From positions 288,001 to 352,000 of the forward strand of contig CAZFGR010000001.1 in NCBI GenBank assembly GCA_964518475.1: DNA of 64,000 nt. The letters are read 5' to 3'. The stretch is from an uncultured Nitrososphaerota archaeon. GTDB taxonomy: Archaea; Asgardarchaeota; Njordarchaeia; Njordarchaeales; Njordarchaeaceae. Each line of letters begins with the position of its first letter. The stretch's first letter is position 1. This document shows positions 26,488 through 45,326 of the stretch, in pieces. The notes beneath the pieces were generated by a model that did not search any database, was not told where the DNA came from, and saw nothing but the letters and a program-made list of their open reading frames with translations. Both the position numbers and the translations under genes were made by a program.

Positions 26488-26961
26488 CTATGTTAAAAAT
26501 ATGATTCCACTTATGTAATTTGCTAATTTTTGTGCAAACAAAATATAGGTTAGCGCCAGAAAGCCAAATAACAGTAATGCAAAGCCAAATGCAAGATAGA
26601 GCCCCTGATACTCTACGTCAGTGAAGTGTTCTACCGAGCTTCTAATAATGAATGCTCCCAGAACACTCATCAAAGTCAGAGCTATCACTATTATTCCTTC
26701 ACTTAGCGTTTGTCGATTTAAATCTGGGATTATTAACTTGGGTACGCGTGGACCAATGATCGCTGGAGGGAGGTTAACAGCTATGTATATTATTCCACTA
26801 GCTAACACTGCACACGTTATAGCTAAAATTAGGAAAAGGATCCTACGGTTTCCTTCCTCTGCGAGATCGATCTCAGGCAATTCTAATTTATACTTTGGTC
26901 TATAGAAACCGGGTAACCAGGGAATCTTTATTTTCCGTTTCACCTTAACCAAGTTACCCAC
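26488..26961 (-). CDS. OSTC/DC2-like (OST3/OST6 family) 3-TM oligosaccharyltransferase subunit
   Basis: SGIIY..V..PP, NRQTLSEG, LGAFII..S, FGF..LLF, KLANY matching remembered DC2 motifs. Confidence 0.75.
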   Translation of the reverse strand: MGNLVKVKRKIKIPWLPGFYRPKYKLELPEIDLAEEGNRRILFLILAITCAVLASGIIYIAVNLPPAIIGPRVPKLIIPDLNRQTLSEGIIVIALTLMSVLGAFIIRSSVEHFTDVEYQGLYLAFGFALLLFGFLALTYILFAQKLANYISGIIFLT

Positions 26962-26965
26962 CTTT

Positions 26966-27898
26966 TTATTGTTCTCTTAATAAGTCTATTACGGTTTTAA
27001 TAACTACTTCCGCAGCTCTTTCTTGCGCCTCTTTTGTCTGCGCACCTATGTGAGGTGTTAAAATAACGTTTGAGAAACCAAGTAGCTTCCTGACGAAAGG
27101 ATTTTCTGGTTTAAGATTTGTATCAGCAGCTAGTCCTCTTATTTTGCCGGATTCAAGACCCCAAATTATTGCTTCAGGATCAAACAATTCCATTCTTGCC
27201 GTATTTATTAGCAATACTCCATCTTTCATTTTTCTTACTTCATCCCAACTTATCATATGCTTAGTCTCTGGTAGTAAAGGAACATGAATAGATATTATGT
27301 CAGAGCTCTCTAGAAGGTTTTCCATTGACACAAAATTAACATTAGCCCCTACCATTTTAGTCATTCTTTTAGCATTCTCTAGAAATTTATCATATCCAAT
27401 AACATTCATTCCTAAGGCATTAGCTATTCTAGCAACCCTACTACCTATGTTTCCCACTCCTATGATACCAAGAGTTTTGCCATGTAACTCTGTTCCCGTA
27501 CAGAAATTTTTTGCCCAAAAACCTCGTCTTAGAGCTTCGTCTCCGAAAATAATTTTCCTAGCTAACGCGATCATTAGTCCTATTGTTAGCTCGGCCACGG
27601 AGTCTGCTGTGGCTGCTCCCGCGTTAATAACCTTTATTCCCCGCGCTTTAGCAGTTTCAACATCTATGTTGTCTAATCCAACACCAACTCTTGCAATAAC
27701 TCTTAGTTTTGCCCCCCTCTCTATTACATCCTTAGTAACCTTTGTTCGCCCTCTTACAAGAACCGCGTCGTATTTATCAATTATTTTCATTAACTCTTCA
27801 TGAGATATATCGGGGCGGTAATCATACATAATTCCAGCTTCCTCTAATAGCTTCAGACCTTTCTCTGATATGGGATCTGTGATAAGGATCTTTATCAT
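26966..27898 (-). CDS. serA: D-3-phosphoglycerate dehydrogenase-like (start at ATG 27898)
   Basis: MIKILITDP, ARVGVGLDNID, GIIGVGNIG, INTAR, TPHIGAQTKEAQ; GGTGA SD. Confidence 0.85.
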   Translation of the reverse strand: MIKILITDPISEKGLKLLEEAGIMYDYRPDISHEELMKIIDKYDAVLVRGRTKVTKDVIERGAKLRVIARVGVGLDNIDVETAKARGIKVINAGAATADSVAELTIGLMIALARKIIFGDEALRRGFWAKNFCTGTELHGKTLGIIGVGNIGSRVARIANALGMNVIGYDKFLENAKRMTKMVGANVNFVSMENLLESSDIISIHVPLLPETKHMISWDEVRKMKDGVLLINTARMELFDPEAIIWGLESGKIRGLAADTNLKPENPFVRKLLGFSNVILTPHIGAQTKEAQERAAEVVIKTVIDLLREQ

Positions 27899-27911
27899 AC
27901 AATTCACCAAG

Positions 27912-29549
27912 TTATACAAATAGTTCGGATACATCTTCCCGCGCTTTTTCTTCGACCTTGGGATACATTGATTCAATTTTTATTGATAATTTCTCATACA
28001 TGACTAAAAAATCTTGTCCACCATGACTCGCTAACACTTTTCTTGTTTTTTCCGTTAATCTTGGTGCTGTGAAGAAGAGAAGCCTGTGGATATAATAAAA
28101 GAATATGTTCCGTAACCACTCGTTTTTACCCCAACCATTCTTCTCCAGATATTCGCATGTTTCAACAAAGTCTTTCATTAAGTGATTTAATAATTTAATA
28201 ATGTCTCTCAGCCGTTCTTCATTAATTTTCGAAATATCCTCTATTTCTAGTATTGGTAAAATAGTTTCAAGAATAAATGGTACAGGCTCGCCCATTAGTA
28301 GGCGAATTCCAATAAGTGCTAAAGGATCCCTTCTCGCATGCTCGAAAAGTATCCTAAAAACTTCAGGTTTTCTAATAATGCTAGTTCTCAACATCACCTT
28401 TGCCTCGAAGTTCCAGTTAGCTATTTCTTCTAAAGCGTCTTGTGAGATAAGCATAGTTGATCTAGGAGATAACCTATCATGAATAGATAGTGGCGGCGGG
28501 GTCAACGGAATAGCTAATAATATTATATCCGGTGAAACTTTTAGAGAAATCATGCTAGTCGTCCCAAAAATTTTCAGAGCATTCTTTAAGTAAAGATTCC
28601 CCACTCCCCTCAGAACTTCCAGCACACCTTTTATGTCATTCTTTTCAATTAGTGCATAAATTCTCGCTACTTCCTGTAGAAGAACTTCTCCGAGATCAAC
28701 GCTTTCTTCAACAATATCTATTTTATTTAGCCCTTTTTTAAGCATCTCGACAATTTTTTCTATATCTTCGCCCTTTGATTCATCATTTTTCAAGATAACA
28801 ACCCTAGATAACGCTTCAAAAAGAGTGGGCAGCATCAAAAGAACTAATTTCTTATTCATTCGGTCATAATTATCTATTCCCATAAGAATATTGCCCAGCG
28901 TATCACTTAGTGTCTTTCCTTTCTCCAATAGAGGCCGTATTCTCTCTGCCAACTCTTTTCTATTCTTCTTATCCATGTAGCTTAGAGTTTTCTCGAGAGC
29001 CTTTGCATGAATAGACAACGCTAAGTCAAATAATTCTTTCATGTTGATTTTTTCTAGTAATTCGTAAAGTTCCTTATCATCTACTGCTCTTAGTAAAATG
29101 TTAAAAGCTTCTTCTTCAAACTCCCCTCTTTCTATAAGTTGTTGAAGTATTTTTGGCCCGCCTCCTTTCCACACTACATATAGTGTAATCAGAAGAAAAT
29201 AGATCGATAACCATTCAATAGTGATTGCTTTTGCATAAATAGGTAATTCTAGGGCGAAGAGACTTTTAACGATCTCTTTGGTTTCAGCAAGCCATGCTGC
29301 CACTAGATCTTTTGGGACGGTTATTTTTTCCTTCTCGCTCTTTAGTAACGGCTTAAACCTTGCGACAACGAGTTTTAATACTTTTTCCTTAACGTTCTGG
29401 AGCTCCTGGAATTTATCAATACTTAGATTGATTATCTCATTGACATTATTGTCCAAGAATTCTGTTAGTAGCTTTAAGTCCTGAATAGTAGTTATTGTTG
29501 GGTAGAGCAAGTACTTGAGAGAGATTATAATTTCATTATCTATTTTCAA
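27912..29549 (-). CDS. Large all-helical hypothetical protein (likely TTG start 29549)
   Basis: Long ORF; GAGGTGA SD upstream of TTG; no motif recognised. Confidence 0.7.
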   Translation of the reverse strand: MKIDNEIIISLKYLLYPTITTIQDLKLLTEFLDNNVNEIINLSIDKFQELQNVKEKVLKLVVARFKPLLKSEKEKITVPKDLVAAWLAETKEIVKSLFALELPIYAKAITIEWLSIYFLLITLYVVWKGGGPKILQQLIERGEFEEEAFNILLRAVDDKELYELLEKINMKELFDLALSIHAKALEKTLSYMDKKNRKELAERIRPLLEKGKTLSDTLGNILMGIDNYDRMNKKLVLLMLPTLFEALSRVVILKNDESKGEDIEKIVEMLKKGLNKIDIVEESVDLGEVLLQEVARIYALIEKNDIKGVLEVLRGVGNLYLKNALKIFGTTSMISLKVSPDIILLAIPLTPPPLSIHDRLSPRSTMLISQDALEEIANWNFEAKVMLRTSIIRKPEVFRILFEHARRDPLALIGIRLLMGEPVPFILETILPILEIEDISKINEERLRDIIKLLNHLMKDFVETCEYLEKNGWGKNEWLRNIFFYYIHRLLFFTAPRLTEKTRKVLASHGGQDFLVMYEKLSIKIESMYPKVEEKAREDVSELFV

Positions 29550-44367: not shown

Positions 44368-44483
44368 CAGATACTAGATCTTTTTCTTTTTGAGACTTGA
44401 GAAATTATAAATATATATAAATCTCCTAATGCTTTGGTAAATCTGATTAATTACTGAAACTAATTTTTAATCACATAATTTAA

Positions 44484-45161
44484 TTGGTGGTTATTTTGGA
44501 ACAACGAGAATTAGAACGAATAGTTATTCGATCATATTCAAAGATTATTGTCTTACTTCCTTCAGCGATAATAGCTGCTATTCTAGGGTTATTGCAACTT
44601 TATCTTGGCTCCACAATAGATCGATTTCTAGGCTTAATATTTATGGTAATTCTCTTCTTTAATATTCTCGTAGCAGCTTTTGAATTCACTGAAGCAAAAA
44701 CATTCGGTTTTTTCGCCTTACTGATTATTGCTGCCTTATCTTACCTTATAATGGTTCAATATAATGTAATACCTGCGCTACCAGCGTCTGCTCTATTAGC
44801 TTCATTAGATATAACTCTCTCTACACAAGCATACTTCGCTTACAGCTTAATAATAAGCATTATTGTTTTTCTTGCATGGCTTTCTAAACGCTGGGATTAC
44901 TGGATAATAGAGCCTAATCAGGTTACTAGACGAACGGGCATATTCGGAAAAAGAGAAAGATTTCCAACTCATGGTATGCAATACGGGATCGAGATAAGAG
45001 ATATTTTTGAATACCTACTATTTGGTAGCGGCACTTTAACGCTCTACTTCCCTAGTGAAAAAAGAATATATGTGCTTCCATTAGTACCAAAAATTAAACA
45101 TGTTGAAAGAGCTATTAGCATGCTTCTTGGAATAATCGAAGTCGAAGAGGAGGAGGTATAA
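44484..45161 (+). CDS. Membrane protein with C-terminal bPH_2-like domain
   Basis: 4 TM helices then YWIIEPNQV.RRTGIFG...IFEYLLFGSGTLTL. Confidence 0.7.
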   Translation: MVVILEQRELERIVIRSYSKIIVLLPSAIIAAILGLLQLYLGSTIDRFLGLIFMVILFFNILVAAFEFTEAKTFGFFALLIIAALSYLIMVQYNVIPALPASALLASLDITLSTQAYFAYSLIISIIVFLAWLSKRWDYWIIEPNQVTRRTGIFGKRERFPTHGMQYGIEIRDIFEYLLFGSGTLTLYFPSEKRIYVLPLVPKIKHVERAISMLLGIIEVEEEEV

Positions 45162-45164
45162 CAA

Positions 45165-45326
45165 ATGCAAGCGGGTATTACGACTGGATATTATTTGGAA
45201 TTAATCCTTTACGTGATAGGCATTATTCTAATAATAGCATTACTTGCCTTTCATTATCTAACATATGAACCGACAATTGTTAGGGAGGAAAAGCGCAGAA
45301 GAAGACGCCAACGCAGAAAAAAGTAA
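45165..45326 (+). CDS. 53-aa single-TM micro-protein, OST4-like (not in ORF track)
   Basis: MQAGITTGYYLELILYVIGIILIIALLAFHYLTYEPTIVREEKRRRRRQRRKK*; GGAGGT SD at 45152; starts 3 nt after upstream stop. Confidence 0.75.
   Translation: MQAGITTGYYLELILYVIGIILIIALLAFHYLTYEPTIVREEKRRRRRQRRKK

Follow-up and report, generated by a model that had tools for sequence, protein, structure and literature searches.

The window analyzed here is a 64,000-nucleotide (nt) stretch of low GC content (about 37%), positions 288001 to 352000 of contig C1 (CAZFGR010000001.1) of an uncultured Njordarchaeales archaeon; the source assembly is 2.33 Mb and 91% complete, and absences from this genome are to be read against that completeness. 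Between window positions 26488 and 45326 lie three genes for small membrane proteins: one of 157 amino acids (aa) with three transmembrane (TM) helices (26488-26961, minus strand); one of 193 aa with a signal peptide, a β-sandwich, and a TM helix (43786-44367, minus strand); and a 53-aa mini-protein with a single TM helix (45165-45326, plus strand). An earlier annotation of the same letters, the sequence-only reading, had claimed these three open reading frames (ORFs), and all are present; since each is conserved in relatives, they are not chance ORFs. The arrangement it described was also confirmed: the 193-aa and 53-aa genes lie on either side of one membrane-protein gene (44484-45161, plus strand; 225 aa), near the Pfam-confirmed ribosomal protein genes uS10 (42976-43374), eL18 (46623-47003), and uL13 (47039-47533). 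We believe that the window probably carries accessory subunits of an Asgard-type Sec61/oligosaccharyltransferase (OST)/translocon-associated protein (TRAP) machinery: an OSTC/DC2-type subunit (157 aa), a TRAP-α-like protein (193 aa), and an OST4-like protein (53 aa). The first assignment is firmly supported, the other two moderately.

The 157-aa protein has hydrophobic helices at about residues 39-66, 85-110, and 118-147, as judged by hydropathy. It matches Pfam family OST3_OST6 (PF04756) at an expectation value (E) of 1.9e-4 and 21.4 bits, over positions 180-292 of the 294-position profile, that is, its membrane part; Pfam yielded no thioredoxin domain match in the protein. When an alignment of 29 Asgard orthologs was turned into a family profile and searched against all PDB sequences, it matched human OSTC/DC2 (6s7o_H) with an E of 6.2e-18 (67.9 bits), covering OSTC residues 11-143 of 149, and canine OSTC with an E of 3.7e-15. 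The same profile matched MAGT1, the Ost3/6 homolog of OST-B, at just E 6.8e-4 (22.3 bits), and yeast Ost3/6 was not matched among the PDB sequences. Because the profile matches OSTC over its full length and MAGT1 far more weakly, the DC2/OSTC call that the sequence-only reading had made for this gene is strongly supported: the 157-aa protein belongs to the Ost3/6-OSTC family, has three helices and no thioredoxin domain, and is closest in sequence, among solved proteins, to OSTC/DC2. Weighing against the assignment, the single 157-aa sequence falls under the curated Pfam cutoff for OST3_OST6 (21.4 versus 27 bits). Searched as a single sequence, the protein gave nothing useful against PDB sequences and nothing in NCBIfam.

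In the databases, the nearest homolog of the 157-aa protein is annotated as Candidatus Njordarchaeales. Distribution was counted across 400 Asgard genomes, 14 of them from Njordarchaeia. By profile search, the 157-aa family is present in 302 of the 400, and its homologs are, with one exception, short open frames of 139 to 228 aa, a length that leaves nearly all members without a thioredoxin domain. The exception lies in one Asgard genome (G164, C195:2683-4764), where the OSTC-like domain occupies residues 494-639 of a 662-aa open frame whose upstream part resembles the end of a peptidase gene; this could be either a real fusion or a stop codon missing at a contig end.

This family is evidently what Asgard surveys name "OST3/OST6." Eme et al. 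(2023) list an OST3/OST6 cluster, arCOG14980, with 82 members and about one copy in every Asgard ancestor (PMC10307638), and Carilo et al. (2024) apply the same Ost3/6 label to the Asgard protein (PMC11417166); in the literature that we searched, we found no paper that ties Asgard proteins specifically to DC2/OSTC. Like human and canine OSTC, a subunit specific to OST-A (6S7O chain H; 6FTG), the protein described here is about 150 aa long, has three TM helices and no thioredoxin domain, and belongs to PF04756. It differs in being archaeal, in its expected partner (AglB instead of STT3A), and in that KCP2 is not detectable in the genome. By analogy with OSTC, it would pack onto the catalytic subunit, AglB/STT3, along that subunit's C-terminal TM helices. 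In mammals, DC2 is required for the STT3A complex's association with Sec61 (PMC5674889); by the same analogy, the archaeal protein may act like DC2 in linking OST to Sec61/SecY.

In the 193-aa protein, an N-terminal signal or anchor helix is followed by one β-sandwich (residues about 40-160), then by a TM helix near the C terminus (about 165-188), and finally by a basic tail of five residues. Its AlphaFold2 (AF2) model has a predicted local distance difference test (pLDDT) score of 91. The top PDB match of this model in Foldseek was 8rjc_5, a chain of a ribosome-Sec61-TRAP complex (E 8e-7), and four more TRAP entries ranked high. In the structural search (VIA), in which the model is compared with all representatives and scored as Z, first place went to 8b5l_q, with an alignment of 146 of 153 residues and Z 12.5, and the top five matches (Z 12.1 to 12.5) were the TRAP-α chains of five entries: 8B5L q, 8B6L E, 8BTK TA, 8RJC 5, and 9N9J 5. 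We identify these chains as TRAP-α because their residue numbers run up to 230-233, exceeding the 183 to 186 residues of the TRAP-β chains, because one of them is named TA, and because TRAP-β in these entries is chain F or v (8b6l_F and 8b5l_v). The alignment to 8rjc_5 spanned 152 residues with a root mean square deviation (rmsd) of 4.2; for 9n9j_5, the lumenal domain alone aligned over 118 residues with an rmsd of 2.6 and Z 12.3.

Relatives of the 193-aa protein are few: a profile search of 1.84 billion representatives returned only about 14. Among the Asgard genomes, the family occurs as a single copy in 12 of the 14 Njordarchaeia and in 39 of the 400 overall; distant members were found in several other Asgard families, including Heimdall-type ones, and none in the largest Asgard family sampled (135 genomes). 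All members have a signal peptide, one β-sandwich, a TM helix, a short basic tail, and a conserved P-x-x-Y-N motif. In 3 of 32 relatives, Pfam TRAP_alpha was matched below threshold, with a best E of 4.8e-4 (1.5e-4 in another set of relatives); the other Pfam matches of the relatives are weak and scattered (TRAP_beta in one, Wzt_C, BsuPI, DUF4352).

Several results weigh against calling this protein a TRAP-α homolog. The next folds in the structural ranking, Spo0M (Z 11.4) and RbmA (Z 11.1), trail by only about 1 Z unit, and the β-sandwich fold is a common one. The 193-aa protein has no match to Pfam TRAP_alpha (PF03896), and its family profiles did not match TRAP-α in the PDB, only fragments of arrestin, PDGFR, and CGTase at E values of about 0.1 or higher. 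The cytosolic tail of eukaryotic TRAP-α has about 60 residues, compared with about 5 in the archaeal protein. In addition, no significant NCBIfam match or single-sequence PDB match was obtained. The best Pfam TRAP_alpha match in the whole genome scored 10.6 bits and lies at a different locus; because this model fails across all 400 Asgard genomes, in which it places no protein above its cutoff, it is not usable as a test for TRAP-α in this phylum.

The likeness to eukaryotic TRAP-α (SSR1) therefore lies in the order of parts (signal peptide, one β-sandwich, TM helix, basic C terminus) and in the best structural match in the PDB, whereas the two differ in sequence, with 6 to 9% identity and no significant hidden Markov model (HMM) match, and in that the 193-aa protein has practically no cytosolic tail and lacks a long acidic segment at its N terminus. 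We consider it likely that the protein is a TRAP-α homolog; the call of the sequence-only reading holds on architecture and best structural matches, but no significant match in sequence backs it. Eme et al. describe Asgard homologs of TRAP-α as very divergent and detected by profile-profile comparison, and one of their clusters, "TRAP alpha," has 15 members and was inferred for Njordarchaeales alone (PMC10307638); that cluster may be the same as the 193-aa family.

The 53-aa protein consists of one TM helix and a poly-Arg/Lys tail; its relatives have 38 to 50 aa. Its gene follows the 225-aa gene at a distance of 3 nt and is preceded by a GAGGAGGAGG stretch. The family is present as a single copy in 11 of the 14 Njordarchaeia genomes, and residues E12, L27, and H30 are invariant within it. 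In the five members of the genus that carry the 225-aa gene, the mini-protein gene keeps its place after it. Elsewhere its surroundings differ: in another Njordarchaeia family (genome G284), the 225-aa gene lies on a different contig and the mini-protein gene is the divergent neighbor of the TRAP-α-like gene; in a third, a 38-aa version lies upstream of a methyltransferase gene, beside a gene that resembles, by sequence only, an aIF5B-like translation GTPase. With a genomic context that changes between these families, the mini-protein gene is an independent one, conserved and kept as a single copy. A G-x8-[LI]-x-H pattern, which we take to be shared with yeast and human OST4, serves as a lead and not as a test.

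Structure prediction points to a site for this helix. The modeled complex consisted of AglB (735 aa, with a 10-row alignment), the OSTC-like protein (29-row alignment), and the mini-protein as the scored partner. The mini-protein scored 0.77 with AglB and the OSTC-like chain (0.76, 0.77, and 0.79 in individual runs), a mark that 58 of 80 solved complexes and 2 of 110 mismatched pairs attained; of the three controls, the best scored 0.00. Contact agreement between runs was at least 88%, and the pLDDT of the partner was at least 77. Its predicted contacts on AglB are at residues 24-50 (TM1), 149-157, 428-441 (end of TM12), and 468-487 (TM13, the last TM helix). All three invariant residues fall within the predicted interface, where H30 touches L431 of AglB, in a conserved D-Y-x-L-x-P stretch. 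According to a review of OST structures, Ost4 lies tucked in between TMH1 and TMH13 of Stt3 (PMC7226087), and the site predicted for the mini-protein agrees with that position. Because OST complexes have been solved, the predictor may remember them; we therefore take the docking score to show likeness to OST4 rather than binding.

Other observations count against an OST4 assignment. No Pfam Ost4 (PF10215) match was found in the genome at E values up to 10, nor among six family members, and profiles of the family did not match OST4 in the PDB. The mini-protein is longer than OST4 (53 versus about 36 aa). The family was detectable in Njordarchaeia only, with no member in the other 386 Asgard genomes at an E of 1e-3; and the controls for the complex prediction were unrelated natural proteins, not chosen as TM helices. 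When searched against PDB and Pfam, the family profiles matched only unrelated TM helices (ZipA, CoxII, and a poxvirus membrane protein). What the mini-protein shares with yeast Ost4p and human OST4 is a single TM helix in a very short protein and a predicted position between TM1 and TM13 of an STT3 homolog; it differs in its length and that of its relatives, in its poly-Arg/Lys tail, and in matching no Ost4 HMM. Given the predicted docking, we lean slightly toward an OST4-like protein; for this part of the sequence-only reading, HMMs gave no support, and what speaks for it is the predicted placement on AglB.

A search of the genome for SecY, AglB/STT3, a ribophorin I homolog, an OST48-like protein, and TRAP-β found all of them; because these five parts are present, the OST/TRAP reading is not contradicted on this point. 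AglB/STT3 is encoded at C1:145690-148122 on the minus strand (126 bits). Its ORF is open for 811 aa, all orthologs start at about codons 76 to 87, and the probable true start, a GTG at codon 77, yields the 735-aa protein modeled above. SecY lies at C1:95195-96301 (200 bits). The OST48-like protein is encoded on C1 as well, 1.9 kb beyond the end of the window, and scores just under the cutoff for OST48_N (32 to 34 versus 36 bits). The TRAP-β homolog, on contig C3 (C3:34117-34587), scores above its Pfam cutoff (51 bits) and matches human TRAP-β by phmmer with an E of 1.1e-3. Its gene is 57 nt from a same-strand gene for a 105-aa protein that resembles ribosomal protein eS26 in sequence; the TRAP-α-like gene likewise sits among ribosomal protein genes. 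The ribophorin I/Ost1 homolog (C10:47934-49907, minus strand; 658 aa) ends in a helical domain of about 140 aa. It escapes the Pfam Ribophorin_I model entirely; its family profile matches human RPN1 (E 6.4e-11), the ribosome-binding cytosolic domain of OST1 from the Lokiarchaeon MK-D1 (8WHN; E 5.1e-8), and yeast Ost1 (E 7e-4). On the other side of the balance, DAD1, KCP2, and Ost4 had no Pfam match in the genome (ribophorin II was not searched for), and Ost5 and TRAP-γ gave only nonsignificant Pfam matches.

For each of the three proteins, a less far-reaching explanation can be given. The 157-aa protein could be an accessory subunit of AglB that resembles only the membrane domain of Ost3/6, with no tethering of OST to SecY and no co-translational OST-A-like assembly. 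Its membership in the same Pfam family as Ost3/6 fits such a role, as does the failure to find KCP2, a protein that works together with mammalian DC2 (PMC5674889). We see this as a real possibility, though not the one that we favor: the family is far closer to OSTC than to MAGT1 (67.9 versus 22.3 bits), the genome encodes a ribophorin I homolog with a ribosome-binding helical tail, and, in another Asgard archaeon, Carilo et al. modeled an arrangement of Sec61, OST, and TRAP that resembles the eukaryotic one. The mini-protein, for its part, might not be an OST subunit at all; it could be a partner of the adjacent 225-aa protein or some unrelated mini membrane protein specific to the lineage, its docking on AglB being an artifact of a predictor that remembers OST4. 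The 3-nt spacing, the apparent cotranscription with the 225-aa gene, and a position kept in five genomes of the genus all argue for a partnership of the two neighbors and against an OST4 role; restriction to Njordarchaeia, the lack of an Ost4 HMM match, the solved complexes that may lie behind the score, and controls that were not TM helices would also be expected under this explanation. We nevertheless find it doubtful, since the gene is not tied to the 225-aa gene in two other Njordarchaeia families, since the controls scored 0.00 where the mini-protein scored 0.77, and since its invariant residues lie in the interface, where conserved positions of AglB (L431, for example) are contacted.

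The TRAP-α-like protein could similarly be a surface protein of a generic kind, Ig-like or CARDB-like and anchored in the membrane, with a role in adhesion, S-layer anchoring, or carbohydrate binding unrelated to the translocon, in which case its likeness to TRAP-α would extend to shared architecture only. Many unrelated β-sandwiches reach Z 10 to 11.4, relatives of the protein match Wzt_C, BsuPI, DUF4352, and even TRAP_beta as weakly as they match TRAP_alpha, and the tail of about five residues and the lack of a significant TRAP-α sequence match are what one would expect of such a protein. Against this explanation stand the five top structural matches, all of them TRAP-α, with the lumenal domain alone reaching Z 12.3 at an rmsd of 2.6, and the family itself, which is single-copy and conserved in Njordarchaeia and in Heimdall-type families. 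Moreover, the protein is the sole TRAP-α candidate in this genome, whose TRAP-β is clear, and a Njord-specific TRAP-α cluster has been annotated by Eme et al. We thus regard a generic surface protein as unlikely.

Under the preferred reading of the locus, three separately transcribed genes would encode small accessory membrane subunits of the Asgard-type Sec61/OST/TRAP machinery for secretion and N-glycosylation. The mini-protein is predicted to be an OST4-like single helix wedged between TM1 and TM13 of AglB, which it would stabilize. The 193-aa protein would be a membrane-anchored β-sandwich on the outer face of the membrane and probably pairs with the TRAP-β homolog encoded elsewhere in the genome. 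Together with SecY, the OST48-like protein, and the ribophorin I homolog with its ribosome-binding helical tail, the three proteins would form a plasma-membrane counterpart of the eukaryotic ribosome-Sec61-TRAP-OST assembly. By analogy with that assembly, we infer that all of these parts may belong to one ribosome-SecY-TRAP-OST complex; an AF2 model and a ribosome pull-down from MK-D1 offer indirect support for such a view (Carilo et al. 2024, PMC11417166).

A bolder possibility, which we put forward tentatively and consider rather improbable as a whole, is that Njordarchaeia and, by extension, the Asgard ancestor had an OST-A-like "subcomplex II" made of AglB, an OST4-type helix, and a DC2/OSTC-type subunit, working beside SecY with a ribosome-binding ribophorin I and TRAP-α/β. 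If so, translocon-tethered co-translational N-glycosylation and DC2 itself would predate eukaryotes, and the thioredoxin-bearing Ost3/6/TUSC3/MAGT1 proteins would be the derived form; this would overturn what the "Ost3/6" label and the scattered occurrence of DC2 in eukaryotes (PMC5674889) suggest.

No known organisms are more closely related to the eukaryotic host lineage than Asgard archaea, and their translocon and glycosylation parts shape models of how the machinery of the endoplasmic reticulum arose. The novelty that the sequence-only reading implied for a eukaryote-like parts list is lower than supposed: Asgard homologs of Ost1-5, Swp1, Wbp1, and TRAP subunits were reported by Eme et al. 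(PMC10307638), and the MK-D1 set was characterized experimentally by Carilo et al. (PMC11417166). Because those subunits are already published, the window mainly adds a Njordarchaeales instance. With the published set, this genome shares Sec61, STT3, OST1, an Ost3/6-family protein, a putative TRAP-α, and TRAP-β, and the cytosolic domain of its ribophorin I homolog matches the solved MK-D1 domain (8WHN); it differs in its Njordarchaeales lineage, in its more divergent putative TRAP-α, and in its lineage-specific OST4-like mini-protein. Two modest additions can be named: that the widespread Asgard "Ost3/6" is OSTC/DC2-type in sequence and architecture, and that a lineage-specific mini-protein is predicted in the OST4 groove of AglB. 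Both bear on whether glycosylation was coupled co-translationally to the Sec channel before eukaryotes arose.

The sequence-only reading had also noted that the three genes lie within about 19 kb. The distance is correct, but the genes do not form a cluster: about 15 ORFs lie in the approximately 17 kb that separate the 157-aa gene from the other two, and not one of them matches an OST or TRAP family. Those with an annotation encode a 2-hydroxyacid dehydrogenase, an M42 peptidase, an ASCH protein, a SAM hydroxide adenosyltransferase, an AP-endonuclease-2-type TIM barrel, an NAD(P)HX repair enzyme, and a class I aminoacyl-tRNA synthetase; the rest have no family match and are uncharacterized. 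Because these unrelated or uncharacterized genes intervene, the stretch is not an operon, and the colocation is without operon-level meaning. We likewise rejected a conserved three-gene cluster: the TRAP-α-like and 225-aa genes are neighbors within a single genus only, and unrelated genes lie between them and the OSTC-like gene. On a larger scale, contig C1 (about 400 kb, roughly 17% of the assembly) carries the genes for SecY (95 kb), AglB (146 kb), the OSTC-like (314 kb), TRAP-α-like (332 kb), and OST4-like (333 kb) proteins, and the OST48-like protein (354 kb), a loose enrichment of translocon and OST genes.

As for the intervening 225-aa protein, it has no Pfam or NCBIfam match. Its AF2 model (pLDDT 84.5) shows four TM helices followed by a C-terminal PH-like domain, for which Foldseek returned weak PH-domain matches only (E at least 7e-3). 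It has about 14 homologs, one annotated as Baldrarchaeia, and its gene appears to be cotranscribed with that of the mini-protein across the 3-nt gap. We considered whether it might be TRAP-γ-like or another translocon part and rejected the idea, given the missing family match, the four TM helices with a PH-like fold, and the weak structural matches.

Two other genes in this part of the window deserve mention. Directly upstream of uS10, the gene at 42003-42896 (plus strand) encodes a 297-aa protein with an N-terminal longin-like domain followed by three to four TM helices; its match to Pfam Fuz_longin_1 is below threshold (E 0.0036), making it a candidate for a longin-type protein that is anchored in the membrane and encoded next to the ribosomal genes of an Asgard archaeon. 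The gene at 27912-29678 (minus strand), which overlaps the end of the 2-hydroxyacid dehydrogenase gene, encodes a mostly helical 588-aa protein with no significant family match.

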